7,115 nt of DNA from a virus (taxonomy: Duplodnaviria > Heunggongvirae > Uroviricota > Caudoviricetes), in the IMG/VR virus record IMGVR_UViG_2695420412_000015; one strand, given 5' to 3'. A program made the position numbers and the translations under genes. Position 1 is the first letter of the stretch. The number at the start of each line of letters is the position of its first letter. Positions 1-5,459 of the stretch are shown here, one piece after another. Under the pieces are notes generated by a model that was not told where the DNA came from, did not search any database, and worked only from the letters and a program-made list of their open reading frames with translations.

Positions 1-189
1 GGTGTGTCATACACCACGTCAGCGGTGGGGACGGGATACTGGTTACTGCAGCTGCTGGACAAAGTCTCTCCGTCCCAGTGGGTGGCAATAGGTGTACTGG
101 GGAGTCTGCTGTTTGGCCTGCTGACGTATCTGACTAACCTGTATTTCAAAATCAGGGAGGACCGCCGTAAGACGGCGCGGGGAGACTAA
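1..189 (+). CDS. S: Pinholin (phage 21 S-like holin), 5'-partial at window edge
   Basis: The translation ...[51 protein letters not shown] closely matches the C-terminal two thirds of phage 21 pinholin S21 as I remember it. The ORF is open to position 1, so the true start lies upstream of the window. Stop TAA at 187..189. A pinholin is the expected partner of the SAR-type endolysins downstream. Confidence 0.8.
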
Positions 190-193
190 AGCG

Positions 194-1183
194 ATGAAGA
201 AAAAATACGAACTGGTTGTTAAAGAGATAAATAATTACCCGGATAAGATTGCTGTTACTGTGGCACTTGAAATTGGCGGGCATCCGTCGTTGTTGTTGCC
301 ACATGTGGCGATTAGTCTTGACCGTACTGAAGGTGCCACGCTGGAGTTCTACGAAGCTGAGGCGAAAAAACAGGCGAAGCAGTTTTTCATGGATATTGTT
401 GCCGGGTTATGCGAAGGGGATGAACCGTCACCGGAAAAGCGCCCCGTAATTTTAGATGCGCAGGATGTATTGATAACCTACAAAGGAAAGCTACCGGGAA
501 GAATTACTTGTTCTCTGAAGATGCCGCCGTCAACACTGCGGTCAGAAAAAGATGATGTTGAATCGCGTATTGAAAAACTGGAGTGCTATATCGCTGAATT
601 GAAAAAAAGCACCCCAACAAAAAATGAGGTGCTTGCAGCAGACGAAATGAAAGAAGCTATTCCTGATCGCGCGGCGAATCTAAGCTGCGCTTCATGGTTG
701 AAAGAGCATCTTCAGCAGCCTGAAAAAAAACGCCGCGATGAGCAGTTTGCTGCGTTTTACGATTATTGCCGGAAAGTGATGAGCAGAAATCTCGCAGAGT
801 GTTTCAGTATTCATAATGATAATTTCAGTGACCTGGAATGGGAGTGTAACCGGCCATCCTTTGTTGTATCCGGTGATGCTGGGAAAATAACCATCTCAGA
901 AAATGGAAAAGTAACACCGCCATCGCACCAGCATAGTGAGGAGCTCATTGAATTTGCCATTGATTACCTGAAGAACAATAAAAAGCAGGGGCTGATGAAG
1001 TGCATTGGTCGTTGCATGGGATATCTGCAGATAGCTGCTGAGATTGAAGCGCTGGCCAGTGGTGCGGACAAGGATGCAGTTGTGCGGGAGGCTCTTCTTC
1101 GTGATTTTGATAATCCGCCCTTTAAAAAAGTGCCGGCTTACTGGTTTCATCCAGGACTGACTTATCTTAAAGGACGTATATAA
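194..1183 (+). CDS. 329-aa ORF: N-terminal DUF1327-like domain (residues 1-109) fused in frame to a ~220-aa C-terminal domain of unknown function
   Basis: ATG at 194, five nt after the holin stop. Residues 1-109 are co-linear with the 110-aa copy-B protein (2064..2396) and resemble the small protein family found beside lysis genes in lambdoid prophages (I recall this as YdfR/DUF1327; family name from memory, unverified). From codon 110 (ATG 521..523) the ORF continues through sequence absent from copy B to TAA 1181..1183. A 990-nt open frame is unlikely by chance; the only antisense ORF (896..1150) is short. Translation of the C-terminal part alone from ATG 521 (220 aa) is an alternative gene model. 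Confidence 0.7.
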   Translation: MKKKYELVVKEINNYPDKIAVTVALEIGGHPSLLLPHVAISLDRTEGATLEFYEAEAKKQAKQFFMDIVAGLCEGDEPSPEKRPVILDAQDVLITYKGKLPGRITCSLKMPPSTLRSEKDDVESRIEKLECYIAELKKSTPTKNEVLAADEMKEAIPDRAANLSCASWLKEHLQQPEKKRRDEQFAAFYDYCRKVMSRNLAECFSIHNDNFSDLEWECNRPSFVVSGDAGKITISENGKVTPPSHQHSEELIEFAIDYLKNNKKQGLMKCIGRCMGYLQIAAEIEALASGADKDAVVREALLRDFDNPPFKKVPAYWFHPGLTYLKGRI

Positions 1184-1225
1184 GCTGGCTCGTTATCTGT
1201 TGCCGATAAATCCTGATAAATATCC

Positions 1226-1759
1226 ATGAACACCAAAATCAAATACGGCCTGTCGGCTGCCGTTCTGGCGCTGATTGCCGCTGGTGCGCCTGCGCCTGAC
1301 ATTCTCGACCAGTTTCTGGATGAAAAGGAAGGTAACCACACCACGGCATACCGTGATGGTGCGGGGATCTGGACCATCTGCCGTGGTGCCATCATGGTGG
1401 ATGGTAAACCTGTTGTTCCAGGCATGAAGTTGTCGAAGGCAAAATGCGCTCAGGTTAACGCCATTGAGCGTAATAAGGCGCTGGCATGGGTGGAGAAAAA
1501 CATCAAAGTGCCATTGACCGAACCACAGAAAGCGGGGATTGCGTCATTCTGTCCGTACAACATTGGCCCCGGTAAGTGTTTCCCGTCGACGTTTTATAAA
1601 CGAATTAATGCAGGCGATCGCAGGGGGGCGTGTGAGGCGATTCGCTGGTGGATTAAGGACGGTGGCAGAGACTGCCGTATTCGCTCAAACAACTGTTACG
1701 GTCAGGTATCCCGTCGCGACCAGGAGAGTGCGCTGGCGTGCTGGGGAATTGACAGATAA
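1226..1759 (+). CDS. R: SAR endolysin (phage lysozyme, T4/P22 lysozyme-like GH24 fold), copy A
   Basis: 177 aa. The N-terminus MNTKIKYGLSAAVLALIAAGAPAP is a Gly/Ala-rich weakly hydrophobic signal-anchor-release type segment. The body carries lysozyme motifs (E...YRDGAGIWTICRG..., ...VPLTEPQKAGIASFCPYNIGPGKCF..STF.., ..WWIKDGG..) in the arrangement seen in P22 gp19 and phage 21 R. It sits directly downstream of the pinholin region. Confidence 0.9.
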   Translation: MNTKIKYGLSAAVLALIAAGAPAPDILDQFLDEKEGNHTTAYRDGAGIWTICRGAIMVDGKPVVPGMKLSKAKCAQVNAIERNKALAWVEKNIKVPLTEPQKAGIASFCPYNIGPGKCFPSTFYKRINAGDRRGACEAIRWWIKDGGRDCRIRSNNCYGQVSRRDQESALACWGIDR

Positions 1760-1853
1760 GCAGAATATTTTGCTGAAAAATGCGGTTTGCTCACACGGAC
1801 GGATAACACGAAATCCTGCGAACTGACAAAAACTAAGTGAATAAAAGTAAAAA

Positions 1854-1888
1854 CCCCGTTTGTTGGCTGCAAGCGGGGTTTTGTGTTT
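1854..1888 (+). terminator. Rho-independent terminator-like hairpin, copy A
   Basis: Stem CCCCGTTTG (1854..1862) pairs with CAAGCGGGG (1870..1878), with one G.U pair, around the 7-nt loop TTGGCTG, followed by TTTTGTGTTT. It is preceded by an A-run, so it could act in both directions. Conserved in copy B. Confidence 0.55.
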
Positions 1889-1918
1889 CCTGACTCTGGA
1901 AAAGTCAAAGGAGAAAGT

Positions 1919-2059
1919 GTGTTTGATTTTAGCAAACTGATTCGGGAGATTCGAGTGATGGCTGAAAAATTATCCACCTGGAAGTTCATTCTTATCTGGC
2001 TGGTGTTTGTGATTATGGCCTCCGGTTATTTCATCGGTCAGATACGACGGGGAGAGTAA
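1919..2059 (+). CDS. Small single-pass membrane protein ORF (46 aa from GTG 1919; 33 aa if ATG 1958 is used), copy A with chimeric 3' end
   Basis: AGGAG at 1910..1914 lies 4 nt before GTG 1919 (in copy B the AGGAG-to-GTG spacing is 5 nt); GGGAG at 1944..1948 precedes ATG 1958. Translation VFDFSKLIREIRVMAEKLSTWKFILIWLVFVIMASGYFIGQIRRGE* has one clear transmembrane segment. The copy at 3131..3268 differs in this segment only by synonymous changes, which argues for purifying selection. The last codons (RRGE*) look like the holin 3' end rather than copy B (RWW*). Confidence 0.45.
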   Translation: MFDFSKLIREIRVMAEKLSTWKFILIWLVFVIMASGYFIGQIRRGE

Positions 2060-2063
2060 AGCG

Positions 2064-2396
2064 ATGAAGAAAAAATACGAACTGGTTGTTAAAGGGATAA
2101 ATAATTACCCGGATAAGATTACTGTTACTGTGGCACTGGAAATTGGTGGGTATCCGTCACTGTTGTTGCCAGATGTGGCGATTAGTCTTGACCGTACTGA
2201 AGGAGCCACGCTGGAGTTTTACGAAGCTGAGGCGAAAAAGCAGGCGAAGCAGTTTTTCATGGATGTTGCTGCCGGGTTATGTGAAGGGGATGGTCCGTTG
2301 CCGGAAAAGCGGCCCATCATTTTAGAGGCGCAGGATGTGTTGATAATCTACAGAGGAAAACTACCGGGAATAATTACTGGTTCTCTGAAGACTTAA
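2064..2396 (+). CDS. DUF1327-like small lysis-region protein, 110 aa (copy B, unextended form)
   Basis: MKKKYELVVKGINNYPDKITVTVALEIGGYPSLLLPDVAISLDRTEGATLEFYEAEAKKQAKQFFMD... is co-linear with residues 1-109 of the 194..1183 ORF (about 14 aa substitutions by eye) and ends ...SLKT* at TAA 2394..2396. Same position relative to the endolysin as in copy A. Family name recalled from memory, unverified. Confidence 0.7.
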   Translation: MKKKYELVVKGINNYPDKITVTVALEIGGYPSLLLPDVAISLDRTEGATLEFYEAEAKKQAKQFFMDVAAGLCEGDGPLPEKRPIILEAQDVLIIYRGKLPGIITGSLKT

Positions 2397-2438
2397 CATA
2401 TCCAGGGATTTGAAATCGATAAACCCTGATAAATATCC

Positions 2439-2972
2439 ATGAACACCAAAATCAAATACGGCCTGTCGGCTGCCGTTCTGGCGCTGATTGCCGCAGGTGC
2501 GCCTGCGCCTGAAATCCTCGACCAGTTTCTGGATGAAAAGGAAGGTAACCACACCACGGCATACCGTGATGGTGCGGGTATCTGGACCATCTGCCGTGGA
2601 GCCACCCGGGTGGATGGTAAGCCTGTCCTCCCGGGCATGAAGTTGTCGAAGGAAAAATGCGACCAGGTTAACGCCATTGAACGTGATAAGGCGCTGGCAT
2701 GGGTGGCGAAAAACATCAGAGTGCCACTGACCGAACCCCAGAAAGCGGGTATTGCGTCATTCTGTCCGTACAACATTGGTCCCGGTAAGTGTTTCCCGTC
2801 TACGTTTTACAGACGAATTAATGCAGGTGATCGAAAAGGTGCCTGCGAAGCGATTCGCTGGTGGATTAAGGACGGTGGCAGAGACTGCCGTATTCGTTCA
2901 AACAACTGTTACGGTCAGGTATCCCGTCGTGACCAGGAGAGCGCGCTGGCGTGCTGGGGAATTGACAGATAA
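2439..2972 (+). CDS. R: SAR endolysin (phage lysozyme), copy B
   Basis: 177 aa, co-linear with copy A and differing at about 11 residues by manual count (e.g. AIMVDGKPVV versus ATRVDGKPVL; KAKCAQ versus KEKCDQ). Intact ORF with the same N-terminal SAR-like segment. Confidence 0.9.
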   Translation: MNTKIKYGLSAAVLALIAAGAPAPEILDQFLDEKEGNHTTAYRDGAGIWTICRGATRVDGKPVLPGMKLSKEKCDQVNAIERDKALAWVAKNIRVPLTEPQKAGIASFCPYNIGPGKCFPSTFYRRINAGDRKGACEAIRWWIKDGGRDCRIRSNNCYGQVSRRDQESALACWGIDR

Positions 2973-3065
2973 GCAGAATATTTTGCTGAAAAATGCGGTT
3001 TGCTCACACGGGCGGATAACACGAAATCCTGCGAACTGGCAAAAACTAAGTGAATAAAAGTAAAA

Positions 3066-3100
3066 CCCCGTTTGTTGGCCGCAAGCGGGGTTTTGTGTTT
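3066..3100 (+). terminator. Rho-independent terminator-like hairpin, copy B
   Basis: Stem CCCCGTTTG (3066..3074), loop TTGGCCG, stem CAAGCGGGG (3082..3090), then TTTTGTGTTT (3091..3100). The stem is identical to copy A; the loop differs by one base. Confidence 0.55.
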
Positions 3101-3130
3101 CCTGACTCCGGAAAAGTCAAAGGAGAAAGT

Positions 3131-3268
3131 GTGTTTGATTTTAGCAAACTGATTCGGGAGATTCGAATGATGGCTGAAAAATTATCCACCTGGAAGTTCA
3201 TCCTTATCTGGCTGGTGTTTGTGATTATGGCTTCCGGTTATTTCATTGGTCAGATACGCTGGTGGTGA
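3131..3268 (+). CDS. Small single-pass membrane protein ORF (45 aa from GTG 3131; 33 aa from ATG 3167), copy B
   Basis: AGGAG at 3121..3125 lies 5 nt before GTG 3131; GGGAG at 3156..3160 lies 6 nt before ATG 3167. Translation ...MMAEKLSTWKFILIWLVFVIMASGYFIGQIRWW*; stop TGA 3266..3268 is immediately followed by the Rz ATG at 3270. The track ORF starting at 3050 would run through the terminator hairpin, so I prefer a downstream start. Confidence 0.45.
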   Translation: MFDFSKLIREIRMMAEKLSTWKFILIWLVFVIMASGYFIGQIRWW

Positions 3269-3269
3269 A

Positions 3270-3737
3270 ATGAACCGCGTACTGTGCGTGGTCATCATTG
3301 CCCTGCTGGTGGCCTGTGGTGCGCTTAGTCTGGGGCTGAATCATTACCGTGATAACGCCATAACCTACAAAGAGCAGCGCGATAAAAAAGTCAGTGAGCT
3401 GGAGCTGGCAAATGCAACCATTACTGATATGCAGGTGCGCCAGCGCGATGTTGCTGCGCTCGATGCAAAATACTCGAGGGAATTAGCCGATGCGAGAGCT
3501 GAAAATGAAACTCTGCGTGCTGATGTTGCCGCTGGTCGTAAGCGCCTGCGGATCAACGCCACCTGCTCCGGTACCGTGCGTGAAGCCACCGGCACCTCCG
3601 GAATGGATAATGCAACCGGCCCCCGACTGGCAGACACCGCTGAACGGGATTATTTCACCCTCAGAGAGCGGTTGATGACAATGCAGAAGCAACTGGAAGG
3701 GGCACAGGACTATATCCGCACTCAGTGCCTGAAATAA
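3270..3737 (+). CDS. Rz: Rz i-spanin (inner-membrane spanin subunit)
   Basis: [40 protein letters not shown]...[31 protein letters not shown]...[35 protein letters not shown] is co-linear with lambda Rz as I recall it ([20 protein letters not shown]...[19 protein letters not shown]). I place the start at ATG 3270 rather than the track's 3246, matching the lambda Rz N-terminus. Confidence 0.9.
   Translation: [155 protein letters not shown]
3490..3675 (+). CDS. Rz1: Rz1 o-spanin (outer-membrane lipoprotein spanin subunit), embedded in the +1 frame of Rz
   Basis: MRELKMKLCVLMLPLVVSACGSTPPAPVPCVKPPAPPEWIMQPAPDWQTPLNGIISPSESG parallels lambda Rz1 (..LPLVVVGC...CVKPPPPPAWIMQPPPDWQTPLNGIISPSERG). 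It has a lipobox (VVSAC) and a proline-rich body. Lying wholly inside Rz in another frame is the classic arrangement. The true start may be the internal Met (MKLCV...). Confidence 0.85.
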   Translation: MRELKMKLCVLMLPLVVSACGSTPPAPVPCVKPPAPPEWIMQPAPDWQTPLNGIISPSESG

Positions 3738-4087
3738 GTTTTGTTGATGCGCCGTATCGTCGCTGTATTCCCTCATTAACAGAGACCGCAGCCCGACAGG
3801 GAGACTCCTCTGCGCGAGTGTGCGGGGATAATCAAAAACGATACACACCGGGGTTTACCGCGTTAACGGAGCGCGGCGTTGTCCCCTCATAGTCGCCTGT
3901 CCGGTGCGATGGTGGAAGAAGCCGGATGTTTATCACTATTAATTGATGACACAGAAATGGATTCATTGAATTTCAGCACGTTTTTGTATTCGTGTTATTG
4001 AACATCTGTTTATTTTACTTTTAACATATTGATAATAAAAAGAGCTGTAAATCTTTAGATGAGTCGATTTTGTCCGGGGAAGTTCAA

Positions 4088-4237
4088 ATGGATTTTATGC
4101 TGACGGTTTCTGGTGTGGTTATCCTGTCCATTGCTTATACTGCAGATAAATATGGCTGCCATTTGTTATCACGTATTGGCGCTTATTGTTCGTTGATGCT
4201 GATTTTCTCGTCGCTTTTTTTTATTTTTTTTGAGTAA
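4088..4237 (+). CDS. Hypothetical 49-aa hydrophobic peptide ORF (not in the supplied track, below its length cutoff)
   Basis: ATG 4088 is preceded by GGGGAAG with a 5-nt spacer. My manual translation is MDFMLTVSGVVILSIAYTADKYGCHLLSRIGAYCSLMLIFSSLFFIFFE*. It is strongly hydrophobic, AT-rich, ends in a T-run, and has atypical codon usage, so it may not be a real gene. Confidence 0.2.
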   Translation: MDFMLTVSGVVILSIAYTADKYGCHLLSRIGAYCSLMLIFSSLFFIFFE

Positions 4238-4369: not shown

Positions 4370-4555
4370 TTACTTAATTATGTAATTCATACCCGAACTC
4401 TCTGTTGACAGCCTTCTTCTGCAGGCTTCAATAACCCACGCTGAAAAGTTTCCTGAACCTTTCAGGTCAAGAGCGATGTTAATTTGTTCAATTATCTGGT
4501 TTGGAAATCGGATGTTGCGGGTTGTTGTTCTGCGGGTTCTGTTCTTTGATGACAT
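4370..4555 (-). CDS. Hypothetical small ribbon-helix-helix-like DNA-binding protein (61 aa)
   Basis: Minus-strand ORF MSSKNRTRRTTTRNIRFPNQIIEQINIALDLKGSGNFSAWVIEACRRRLSTESSGMNYIIK. It has a basic N-terminus, then a beta-strand-like IRFP segment, a helix, a GSG turn and a second helix (NFSAWVIEACRRRL), which is the Arc/Mnt/CopG-type layout. Its position between the spanin genes and a Nu1 homologue recalls small ORFs such as ylcI upstream of nohD in E. coli cryptic prophages (from memory, unverified). No strong Shine-Dalgarno sequence seen. Confidence 0.4.
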   Translation of the reverse strand: MSSKNRTRRTTTRNIRFPNQIIEQINIALDLKGSGNFSAWVIEACRRRLSTESSGMNYIIK

Positions 4556-4754: not shown

Positions 4755-4766
4755 GGGCGGCGACCT
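4755..4766. other. cosN: cosN: 12-nt cohesive-end sequence GGGCGGCGACCT (terminase nicking site)
   Basis: 4721..4754 (TTGCGGGTCCTTTCCGGCGATCCGACAGGTTACG) matches the right end of phage lambda DNA as I recall it. 4755..~4799 (GGGCGGCGACCTCGCGGGTTTTCGCTATTTATGAAAATTTTCCGG) matches the lambda left end; the sequence diverges after that. The segment just upstream (about 4700..4754) should contain cosQ. Confidence 0.85.
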
Positions 4767-4799
4767 CGCGGGTTTTCGCTATTTATGAAAATTTTCCGG

Positions 4800-4911
4800 G
4801 ATCCATGTCCGGTTTCTCTTCAAGTTAACTATATGAAAAATATAAAAACAGGTCTTCTGTGAACCGGACATGAACAAAAAACAGACATGTAAACCGGACA
4901 TGACCGGTTTT
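4800..4911. promoter_or_regulatory. cosB: cosB-like region: three copies of an AACCGGACATG element (one inverted, two direct) flanking an AT-rich putative IHF site
   Basis: CATGTCCGGTTT at 4804..4815 is the inverted copy. An AT-rich stretch follows (4816..4860, ...AAGTTAACTATATGAAAAATATAAAAACAGG...). Direct copies are AACCGGACATGA at 4862..4873 and AAACCGGACATGA at 4891..4903, followed by the palindromic arm ACCGGTTT. The order and position between cosN and the Nu1 start parallel lambda R3-I1-R2-R1, but the element sequence differs from lambda R sites. Confidence 0.55.
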
Positions 4912-4949: not shown

Positions 4950-5459
4950 GTGGCTACGCAGACTGAAGTTGCCAGGCATTTAAGTCTGACCGATCGCCAG
5001 CTTCGCAGATTGCAGAAATTGCCGGGTGCCCCGATATCGAATAAGCGAGGGCAACTGGATCTGGATGCCTGGCGCGATTTTTACATATCGTATCTGAGGA
5101 GAAGTAAAAACGATGTGCCTGATGGCGATAGCGAAGACGACTATGAGGAGAAATTGCTTATTGCCAGATGGGAACTGACAGCAGAACAGGCTGTTACACA
5201 GCAGTTAAAAAATGAGGTGTCAAAAGGAAAACTTATTGACACCGGGTTCTGTATTTTTGCCCTCAGTAAGCTGGCAATGGCGTTATCCAGTACGCTTGAT
5301 TCCATCCCTTTATCCATGCAGCGACAGTTTCCTGATTTAACACCGCGCCATCTTGACCATCTGAAAACCCTTATTGCGAAGGGGGCAAATCAGTGTGCGC
5401 GGGCAGGGGATAAATTACCGGATTTACTCGATGAATATATCAGAGCAACAACTGAATAA
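4950..5459 (+). CDS. nu1: Terminase small subunit (lambda Nu1 / E. coli NohA/NohD family)
   Basis: GTG start at 4950 after AGGTGAGGA. The C-terminal half (..TGFCIFALSKLAMALSSTLDSIPLSMQRQFPDLTPRHLDHLKTLIAKG...LPDLLDEYI) is co-linear with lambda Nu1 (..TAFCTFVLSRIAGEIASILDGLPLSVQRRFPELENRHVDFLKRDIIKA...IPGLLSEYI). The N-terminal HTH-like region (EVARHLSLTDRQLRRLQKLPGAP) is diverged. Stop TAA at 5457..5459. Confidence 0.9.
   Translation: MATQTEVARHLSLTDRQLRRLQKLPGAPISNKRGQLDLDAWRDFYISYLRRSKNDVPDGDSEDDYEEKLLIARWELTAEQAVTQQLKNEVSKGKLIDTGFCIFALSKLAMALSSTLDSIPLSMQRQFPDLTPRHLDHLKTLIAKGANQCARAGDKLPDLLDEYIRATTE

Follow-up and report, generated by a model that had tools for sequence, protein, structure and literature searches.

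A portable cassette with a structured RNA leader and a small membrane-protein gene between the endolysin and spanin genes of a Shiga toxin-type lambdoid prophage

The stretch of DNA analysed here (7,115 nucleotides of the IMG/VR virus record IMGVR_UViG_2695420412_000015, hereafter the window) comes from an Escherichia coli prophage of the phage-21/H-19B lambdoid type and represents 7.1 kb of its late region. We examined a short segment between the gene of a phage-21-type lysozyme (2439..2972, plus strand; PF00959, E = 1.4e-24), annotated in related records as lysozyme or R protein, and the gene of the i-spanin Rz (3270..3737, plus strand; PF03245, E = 3e-50). From left to right, the segment contains a terminator-like stem-loop (HP1, 3061..3095, plus strand; AAAACCCCGUUUG...CAAGCGGGGUUUU) with a 5' A-tract and a 3' U-rich tail, a second hairpin (HP2, 3098..3126, plus strand) that in minimum-free-energy folds masks the ribosome-binding site, the Shine-Dalgarno (SD) sequence AGGAG (3121-3125), and a small open reading frame (ORF; 3131..3268, plus strand) whose GTG start lies five bases after the SD. 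The ORF encodes the 45-aa peptide MFDFSKLIREIRMMAEKLSTWKFILIWLVFVIMASGYFIGQIRWW and ends in TGA (3266-3268), which is separated by one base from the Rz start codon (ATG at 3270). The hairpins (placed here at 1850-1882 and 3061-3095), the SD, the small ORF, and the one-base gap to Rz had all been described in an initial annotation of this DNA, and all are present. Judging from its sequence and distribution, this unit of ~210 bp appears to be a self-contained and portable "moron" of phage late operons, here placed in the R-Rz slot of a prophage of the H-19B/Shiga toxin (Stx) type.

HP1 folds with -21.3 kcal/mol (z = -4.2), and its counterpart in an upstream copy of the cassette (1850..1882, plus strand, detected by a terminator scan) folds with -21.6 kcal/mol (z = -4.4). 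For either copy, none of 200 shuffled sequences folded as stably. The form of HP1 fits that of an intrinsic terminator, with 14–15 pairs followed by UUUUGUGUUUCC, and termination itself is predicted. The proposal of an attenuator-like hairpin stands as a prediction, with a stability of about -21 kcal/mol and z of about -4.3. Because this stable and conserved stem-loop sits in a Q-dependent late operon, read-through under antitermination is the natural expectation.

The upstream copy results from a partial tandem duplication of the lysis region (178-3258; units 178-2047 and 2048-3258), which comprises the holin 3' end, the DUF1327 gene, the endolysin gene, and the cassette. The two units share 92–97% identity, and the second DUF1327 copy is cut to 110 aa, compared with 329 aa for the first copy. 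The small ORF of the first unit (copy A) lies at 1919..2059 on the plus strand. It is chimeric, since, as an alignment of the units shows, from about position 2046 it consists of the 3' end of the holin gene. Its 46-aa product ends in ...GQIRRGE*, with ...IRRGE* in place of the ...IRWW* of the second unit (copy B), and the gene that follows is the truncated DUF1327 gene, not Rz. Four positions of the ORF differ between the copies over the part that they share. One of these, GTG/ATG in codon 13 (Val/Met), lies outside the transmembrane (TM) segment, and the other three are third positions within it (ATT/ATC, GCC/GCT, ATC/ATT), confirming the claim that the TM-coding segments differ only synonymously. 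The initial annotation was also right that both repeat units carry the element, but the reason is a chance duplication that has so far been seen in this window only. Neither the 5,426 complete E. coli genomes nor the 50,697 phage records searched contain the duplication junction (at ~2046), and no second endolysin copy was present among the IMG/VR relatives whose locus reaches the endolysin (77 of 80). This identifies copy B as the native copy and copy A as a chimeric by-product. As the two units are no more similar than stated above, the sequence suggests recombination between two different prophage lysis regions, not a recent duplication in place. The duplication may have arisen by such a recombination or may be an assembly artefact.

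Several lines of comparative evidence indicate that the small ORF is a real gene under purifying selection. The product of copy B matched phrog_6632, a family of unknown function, over its entire length (E = 8e-30, residues 1-45 on profile positions 1-45 of 45). The length of 45 aa and the C-terminal GQIRWW are kept in E. coli, E. albertii, E. fergusonii, and Salmonella, and copies were confirmed by tblastn in Citrobacter, Edwardsiella, Yersinia, Izhakiella, Sodalis, Brenneria, Symbiopectobacterium, Serratia, Providencia, Trabulsiella, and Dryocola. Profile searches widened the family to Pseudomonas aeruginosa, Haemophilus influenzae, Canicola, Burkholderiaceae, and Neisseria-like contigs from oral metagenomes, and members from Pseudomonas, Haemophilus, Burkholderiaceae, and the Neisseria-like contigs also matched phrog_6632. 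The median ratio of nonsynonymous to synonymous substitution rates (dN/dS) was ~0.15 (Nei-Gojobori, 12 copies, 59 pairs), with dS saturated. In the TM half (codons 23-45), the proportion of synonymous differences (pS) was 0.77 and that of nonsynonymous differences (pN) 0.23, pointing to protein-level selection that is independent of any overlapping nucleotide signal. Purifying selection had originally been proposed from the three synonymous differences between copies A and B, which alone are weak evidence; it is the comparison across genera that supports it. All 80 IMG/VR copies were intact, and frameshifts were seen in a minority of genomic copies, as expected of decaying prophages.

In principle, the arrangement could be no more than the ordinary terminator of the endolysin gene with a chance ORF or the remnant of a decaying gene behind it, and some copies are indeed frameshifted. 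Moreover, the Prokaryotic Genome Annotation Pipeline (PGAP) often leaves the ORF unannotated or sometimes calls a 72-aa form that starts at GTG 3050 and runs through the hairpin, whereas the homologues show the 45-aa form to be the conserved one. The comparative data contradict this explanation, and we regard it as extremely improbable given the low dN/dS, the constant length across genera, the PHROG family, the leader that travels with the ORF, and the intact state of every viral copy.

As anticipated for a single-TM peptide, the AlphaFold2 model of the protein (31-sequence alignment, mean predicted local distance difference test score 80.6) showed a helix at residues 3-17, a break at 18-19 (usually L-P), and a second helix at 20-44 that spans the hydrophobic stretch 23-42. 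The basic residues K6, R9, R12, K17, and K22 are all N-terminal to this stretch, and by the positive-inside rule the protein is predicted to be bitopic with its N-terminus inside and its C-terminus outside, leaving only R-W-W at the periplasmic face. The best-conserved part is the N-terminal amphipathic basic helix, predicted to be cytoplasmic, with the pattern x-D-[FIL]-S-K-L-I-R-E-[LI]-R-x-M-x-E-K-L-P-x-W-K-F, and the TM helix of family members usually ends in RWW. No family was found for the protein in Pfam or NCBIfam, where holin, antiholin, and releasin families gave no match, and there was no match in the lysis category of PHROG or to any PADLOC defence model. Searches of the literature (full-text peptide sequences, lysis cassettes, surveys of type I toxin-antitoxin systems, and releasins) found no paper describing the ORF, which is catalogued only as phrog_6632 or as "hypothetical protein".

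The gene is preceded by the same two-hairpin leader in prophages of Enterobacterales, Pseudomonas, Haemophilus, Neisseria-like bacteria, and Burkholderiaceae. A GC-rich hairpin with an A-tract and a U-rich tail was located ~35 nt before the start codon in all lineages. Both HP1 and HP2 were found in each lineage examined, HP2 in most of the minimum-free-energy folds. The HP1 stems carry compensatory variants (CCCCG/CGGGG, CTCCG/CGGAG, GCCCCG/CGGGGC, and ACCCG/CGGGT), and two Neisseria-like copies have wholly different HP1 inner stems. In HP2, the pyrimidine tail of HP1 (UUUCC) pairs with the SD purines (GGAGA) around the inner stem UGACU/AGUCA. Across loci the tail is UUUCC or UUUCU, and an inner stem of 4–7 bp closes directly against the SD. 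This inner stem is TGACT/AGTCA in the window and is replaced at the same position elsewhere by CCTTG/CAAGG, CGTTA/TAACG, CCTTCTG/CAGAAGG, or TTAAG/TTTAA. The start codon itself is weak: of 13 Enterobacterales copies, 12 have GTG and one has TTG.

A covariance model built from 13 leaders detected the leader before the ORF in all taxa. When the model was tested on a model-based alignment of 22 copies, 88% of the cells were paired and 10 pairs showed changes on both sides, a result reached by none of 500 shuffles, while slid controls gave 35–60% pairing; such an alignment is fitted to the model and thus leans towards the model structure. In the same alignment the HP1 helix was 94% paired, with seven pairs changed on both sides. 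Independently of this model, a plain MAFFT alignment analysed with RNAalifold yielded HP1 with four compensatory pairs. HP2, the stems of which were aligned out of register, was not recovered and was therefore assessed by per-sequence folds, the table of stems, and the covariance-model alignment. Nothing on the cassette was found in Rfam, either for the window at E <= 1 or for 13 related loci at the gathering score; a sub-threshold match to a rimP leader occurred on the minus strand of copy A only and reflects generic terminator similarity. The leader is thus a candidate for a new RNA motif that has no Rfam family.

The boundary seen in another prophage shows to which gene the hairpin belongs. 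In Sp10 of E. coli O157 strain Sakai, the DNA after the endolysin stop codon matches the window exactly up to the start of HP1 and then continues into different cargo. By this comparison, HP1 belongs to the cassette, as the left end of a single insert, and not to the endolysin. A small RNA (sRNA) in the ~90 nt between the endolysin stop codon and HP1 was also considered and rejected, as this stretch is endolysin flank common to phages without the cassette. A promoter scan and a comparison across contexts found no conserved sequence or promoter-like site upstream of HP1 or between HP1 and the SD.

The covariance model also found plus-strand leaders before a second family of small TM ORFs, which are phrog_12997-like (e.g., MKESSNKTNLNTGGKMSEKGADRAGVILAVAALISALALLVWAASWVKWW). 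Such units were found in E. fergusonii, directly upstream of the phrog_6632 unit, in Dryocola, in a Neisseria-like contig, and twice more in a Burkholderiaceae locus (L009 3680-3908; L024 2527-2746; L123 2700-2920; L112 4625-4879 and 6151-6384). Their ORFs follow the pattern ...GGKMSEKGADKAG-TM-(R/K)WW, most of the proteins ending in (R/K)WW, and have a conserved internal Met preceded by a strong SD. Some loci hold two or three leader-plus-ORF units in a row, with the phrog_12997-like unit often directly upstream of the phrog_6632 unit. From these sequences, the leader looks like a shared regulatory front end for exchangeable small membrane-protein genes. In locus L009 (3896-3925), the upstream small ORF ends in tggtggTGAtATGtcccgg, which is the same WW-stop-N-ATG junction, followed by an apparent gene-start stub and then by the next HP1. 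This suggests that cassettes are stacked by recombination at the WW-stop-N-ATG junction. A weak leader-like match (21 bits, E of ~0.003) was also seen in H. influenzae (L109 1581-1647), immediately upstream of a gene of the Rha/ORF11CD3 antirepressor type. It could mean that the leader also occurs before larger moron genes, or it could be due to chance.

The cassette was found in a wide range of gene contexts and was co-oriented with the flanking phage structural or lysis genes wherever such genes were present. In the window it follows an S21 pinholin, a DUF1327 gene, and a phage-21-type lysozyme and precedes Rz. In Salmonella it stands between a P22-type lysozyme, itself preceded by a Phage_holin_2_3 holin, and Rz (PF03245), and a similar Rz follows it in Citrobacter. 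In E. fergusonii it comes after a Phage_holin_8 gene and a GH19 endolysin and before a DUF2514 protein of the RzpQ type, which we take to be the spanin. The families of holin, endolysin, and spanin beside the cassette thus vary between phages. Outside lysis regions, the cassette lies between baseplate genes in Yersinia, with degraded copies in Serratia and Dryocola; the flanking baseplate genes of these three are, as read by eye, presumably V-like and W-like. It follows the gene of a 965-aa protein in Brenneria and Symbiopectobacterium, and lies between the portal and ClpP-capsid (protease-capsid) genes in H. influenzae, in the accessory (moron) slot between the lambda-like tail genes K and J in P. 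aeruginosa, and among ParE, RelB-YafQ, and HicAB modules just upstream of the terminase in Burkholderiaceae. Further copies were located near an integrase, with SIR2 and WYL genes as neighbours, and in accessory regions of the Bro-N/KilA-N kind.

Some of these loci showed other small RNA genes nearby. Copies of the STnc100 sRNA, scoring above the Rfam gathering score, are present upstream of the lysis cassettes in Salmonella (L005 708-801 and 1942-2151) and Citrobacter (L015 439-557 and 1119-1329), as are several tRNA genes. In a Neisseria-like phage contig, the stretch immediately before a Bro-N gene (L121 4657-4728) matches the c4-2 antisense RNA (RF02944) with 43.8 bits, the gathering score being 41.

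The R-Rz junction in turn is filled differently in related prophages. In the Qin prophage of E. coli K-12, R overlaps Rz and the slot is empty. In Sakai Sp6, Sp10, and Sp15, it holds an antirepressor gene and a 48-aa TM ORF of phrog_4906. Because Sp10 carries other cargo and Qin nothing, this junction is a moron slot. The phrog_4906 ORF (MGWLMISDKLITLVKSLCVLVGISFLVMLVAIFFSTAWRVLTLSGLVG; Sp10, L116 4556-5271; Sp15, L115; Sp6, L117) ends 7 nt before Rz and is another small membrane protein occupying the position just before the spanin gene. Identity of the R-to-Rz segment of the window reaches 100% with many chromosomes of Shiga toxin-producing E. coli (O121, O157, and O111), with one record of an Stx2a-converting phage (LC567829), and with many records of Stx2c-converting phages, and is 99.2% with phage H-19B, where the annotation has only R and Rz. 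The region was matched in 2,066 of the 5,426 complete E. coli genomes, 871 of which carry most of the query.

These contexts bear on the role first proposed for the element, that of a dedicated lysis regulator (antiholin-like or spanin-associated) translationally coupled to Rz, with the hairpin as an R-Rz attenuator. The synteny with Rz that had been anticipated holds in part. The stop-N-ATG junction (tggtggTGAnATG) is fixed directly before the spanin gene in the lysis cassettes of the window, Salmonella, Citrobacter, and E. fergusonii, and the junction with Rz is kept in 79 of 80 IMG/VR loci. The gene also lies within the late transcript, and a possible dual-start motif recalls holin/antiholin genes. 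However, the same cassette occurs away from lysis genes, in baseplate, portal/protease, tail-slot, toxin-antitoxin, and near-integrase positions; its holin, endolysin, and spanin partners change between phages; many phages with the same R and Rz have no cassette or have other cargo; and the protein has no holin, antiholin, or releasin match in Pfam or NCBIfam. This wide and position-independent distribution weakens the case for a spanin- or lysis-specific role, and we consider a dedicated lysis regulator rather unlikely. The stop-N-ATG junction does not show that the protein and the spanin work together.

A codon table of 13 Enterobacterales copies, among which synonymous divergence is saturated, showed that synonymous sites in codons 3-18 are frozen while the TM codons use all synonyms freely. 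D3 is GAT, codon 4 is xTT, S5 is AGC, R12 is CGA, and M14 is ATG in 13 of 13 copies; K6 is AAA, R9 is CGG or AGG, E10 is GAG, and L18 is TTA in 12 of 13. The mean pS was 0.43 in codons 2-22, compared with the higher value of the TM half given above. At the level of sequence, the frozen codons fit two overlapping signals. The first is a candidate internal start (3156..3172, plus strand) formed by GGGAG (3156-3160) and, 9 nt further on, ATG14 (3170-3172), from which a 32-aa form would be made; among 31 diverse members, Met14 is conserved in at least 90%. The second is a candidate minus-strand extended -10 element (3138..3146, minus strand; TGCTAAAAT), the reverse complement of codons 3-6. The motif TGnTAnnnT occupies the same aligned minus-strand position in 16 of 19 family members, reading TGCTAAAAT in the copy from the GC-rich genome of P. 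aeruginosa and TGCTAGAAT in the Burkholderiaceae copy. A different minus-strand promoter called by the scan (3253-3224) was rejected, as it is not conserved in Salmonella and lies among freely varying synonymous sites.

A transcript from the candidate -10 element would be an antisense RNA of ~80 nt (3050..3133, minus strand; -22 kcal/mol, z = -3.4), starting at about the complement of the start codon and terminated by the complement of HP1. The A-tract upstream of HP1 becomes a U-tail on the minus strand (UUUUACUUUUAUU). The predicted fold has a free CU-rich 5' end complementary to the SD, a hairpin that is the complement of HP2, and a terminator with a U-tail. This geometry resembles that of SymR and symE.

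The RNA could even be the main product, either as a plus-strand terminator-ended RNA or as a minus-strand sRNA acting in trans, with the ORF secondary. In keeping with this, the leader is conserved in nucleotide sequence from Enterobacterales to Burkholderiaceae and is common to two ORF families, the predicted antisense RNA has a typical sRNA architecture, and the late regions of prophages in enterohaemorrhagic E. coli (EHEC) are rich in Hfq-bound sRNAs (PMC4104026). Against it stand the lack of an Rfam family and the TM half, in which the protein is under strong purifying selection although its nucleotides could otherwise vary. Among the mapped Sakai Hfq peaks obtained by cross-linking and analysis of cDNA (CRAC; Tree et al. 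2014, Table S2), none lies between R and Rz; in the three Sakai prophages checked (Sp6, Sp10, and Sp15), however, this slot carries other cargo. EcOnc11 maps downstream of Rz, and EcOnc33 lies inside an esterase gene. We judge an RNA as the main product very unlikely.

Compared with described systems, the cassette would come closest in its mode of action to a type I toxin-antitoxin module, and its distribution is that of a moron; by this analogy it departs from each in one defining feature. Type I toxins normally have their own promoter. The likeness to type I modules (Fozo et al. 2010, PMC2887945), among them symE/SymR and hok/Sok, begins with a small hydrophobic single-TM protein: at 45 aa and with the modelled helix at 20-44, the product falls within the size range of type I toxins (less than ~60 aa with a TM helix). 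It extends to the layered translational repression, with a structured leader that masks the SD and a weak start; to the predicted antisense promoter in the first codons, whose ~80-nt RNA would cover the translation-initiation region; and to the tandem or multi-copy arrangement on mobile elements with neighbouring toxin-antitoxin modules. Unlike type I toxin genes, the cassette appears to depend on read-through of the late operon. Its protein has a conserved 22-residue cytoplasmic helix unlike known toxins and resembles no known type I toxin family in sequence.

The likeness to phage morons such as HK97 gp15 and lambda bor/lom (Juhala et al. 2000, via PMC4104026) lies in an extra gene between conserved late genes, in a slot that is empty or otherwise filled in related phages, in mosaic spread, and in a small membrane protein as the product. 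Classical morons have their own upstream promoter, a downstream terminator, and expression in the lysogen, whereas in the cassette the terminator-like hairpin is upstream, neither a promoter nor a downstream terminator was found, and the stop codon abuts the next start. These differences also bear on the possibility that the cassette is a moron for lysogenic conversion or superinfection exclusion, i.e., an inner-membrane protein made in the lysogen that blocks DNA entry or protects the host. HK97 gp15 and T4 Imm are the model cases of such functions. The moron-like spread, the presence in known moron slots and near defence and toxin-antitoxin genes, the small bitopic membrane protein of the AlphaFold2 model, and the occurrence in roughly 871 to 2,066 of 5,426 E. 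coli genomes would all agree with it. Steady expression in the lysogen, however, is disfavoured by the upstream terminator-like hairpin, the masked ribosome-binding site, the GTG start, and the lack of a coding-strand promoter between HP1 and the ORF, and no PADLOC defence model was matched. We consider an exclusion function unlikely.

The dual-start holin/antiholin genes (lambda S105/S107 and phage 21 S68/S71) likewise encode small membrane proteins of the lysis cassette. The cassette gene resembles them in having two candidate in-frame starts, with extra basic residues in the longer form, and the RNA structure at its start region recalls the sdi stem of lambda S. It differs in that its protein has one TM domain only and its starts are 13 codons apart instead of two to three, that there is no holin match in Pfam, that the window already has a PF04971 pinholin, and that the cassette also occurs outside lysis cassettes. 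The Mu gp25 "releasin" (DUF2730; Chamblee et al. 2022, PMC9239132) is similarly membrane-tethered, mostly cytoplasmic, and encoded near a SAR (signal-anchor-release) endolysin and spanins. Its TM domain is N-terminal while that of the cassette protein is C-terminal, giving the opposite topology; DUF2730 gave no Pfam match to the cassette protein at E <= 1; and the cassette also stands beside other endolysins (a GH19 enzyme and a P22-type lysozyme) or with none nearby. The sRNAs AgvB, AsxR, StxS, and Pas of EHEC and enteropathogenic E. coli (PMC4104026; bioRxiv 10.64898/2026.05.13.724894) are also short terminator-ended RNAs from moron slots in lambdoid late operons. Those loci lie upstream of the holin gene, whereas the cassette holds a protein-coding gene under selection, and the Rfam models of AgvB and AsxR found no match in the window.

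Taken together, we infer, with about even confidence, that the cassette is a moron encoding a tightly throttled, toxin- or holin-like small membrane protein and not a dedicated partner of the spanin. The protein would be made only from read-through late transcription, which in lambdoid phages is Q-antiterminated; this dependence is suggested by the co-orientation with late genes and by the lack of a promoter-like site in the searches described above. HP1 would insulate the gene from unmodified polymerase, and even under read-through the output would be low, since expression would be cut at three points: by the terminator, by the masking of the ribosome-binding site, and by the GTG start. The minus-strand extended -10 element in codons 3-6 probably drives the antisense RNA, which would cover the start codon, the SD, and both hairpins and keep the gene silent in the lysogen, as in symE/SymR. 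The internal SD with Met14 may yield a second product of 32 residues. The product is most likely a membrane-perturbing peptide of a toxin-like or holin-like kind. Lysis in this phage presumably follows the phage-21 pinholin/SAR-endolysin route, which is triggered by membrane depolarisation, and the peptide would tune its timing or robustness, or else be a factor for suicide or addiction. The UGGUGGUGA-N-AUG end may be a docking feature before the start of a downstream gene, supplying an SD-like sequence or allowing re-initiation, with Rz as the partner here, a protease gene in Haemophilus, and another small ORF in a Neisseria-like contig. In this way, insertion would not remove the ribosome-binding site of the downstream gene.

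Several observations weigh against parts of this reading. The masking of the SD was only slightly higher than in composition-preserving shuffles (0.70 and 0.59, respectively), because any pyrimidine-rich tail pairs with a purine-rich SD. A promoter of the kind that type I toxin genes have is missing: nothing is conserved upstream of HP1, and no -10/-35 pair fits between HP1 and the SD. The consensus promoter scan does not call the minus-strand -10 element, and its -35 element is weak. The motif is absent in the Haemophilus copy, in one Neisseria-like copy, and in one other, and most members of the phrog_12997-like family that share the leader do not have it. The G-U pairs of HP1 make it more stable on the plus strand (-21.3 kcal/mol, compared with -14.4 kcal/mol on the minus strand). 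The frozen synonymous sites could instead result from translation-initiation constraint at two starts. Finally, in several thousand E. coli prophage copies the order is always R-cassette-Rz, which leaves room for a lysis-specific role.

Genes of lysis and packaging surround the cassette in the window. The window begins with the 3' end of an S21-type class II holin gene (4-189; PF04971, the canonical pinholin family), followed by the gene of a DUF1327 fusion protein of 329 aa (194-1183). The first ~100 residues of this protein are DUF1327 (YdfR family), and the long remainder matches phrog_1085 and several other PHROGs of unknown function; the protein usually found between holin and endolysin has ~110 aa. 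The first copy of the phage lysozyme gene (1226-1759) comes next, and the truncated DUF1327 gene (2064-2396) lies upstream of the second. The hydrophobic N-terminus of the second endolysin copy is presumably a SAR domain. Rz1 (3490-3675; PF06085, E = 1.5e-19) is embedded in Rz. The AT-rich accessory stretch between Rz and cos contains a 55-aa hydrophobic ORF on the plus strand (4070-4237; MSGEVQMDFMLTVSGVVILSIAYTADKYGCHLL...) and a 61-aa ORF on the minus strand (4370-4555), at about the place where related genomes annotate a gene of the YlcI/YnfO family downstream of Rz. The sequence GGGCGGCGACCTCGCGGGTTTTCGCTATTTATGAAAATTTTCCGG at ~4757-4800 resembles the left end of lambda and is presumably a lambda-type cos site. 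It is followed by Nu1 (4950-5459) and by the start of the gene for the large terminase subunit.

Among known systems, the cassette is best described as a variant of the moron and of the type I-like small toxin cassette, its distinctive feature being the conserved RNA leader. It is possible, though on balance doubtful, that phrog_6632, the phrog_12997-like family, and possibly others form an undescribed superfamily of portable late-operon cassettes resembling type I toxin-antitoxin systems, in which an antisense RNA and the leader silence a holin-like toxin in lysogens and antitermination releases it. Its members would share one structured leader and often an RWW C-terminus. If this is true, temperate phages of Gamma- and Betaproteobacteria would gain either a "second trigger" of membrane depolarisation that is exchangeable or a function in addiction or abortive infection. 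The cassette is very common in the lysis region of Stx1, Stx2a, and Stx2c phages, and descriptions of Stx-phage lysis cassettes, such as PMC8136144, omit it. Should the protein perturb the inner membrane, pinholin/SAR-endolysin lysis, and with it the release of Shiga toxin, could occur earlier or later. A leader that travels with different small membrane-protein genes over two proteobacterial classes would also provide a compact model for the silencing of toxic small proteins, and the same cassette a model for how a moron may be inserted without breaking the expression of an operon.

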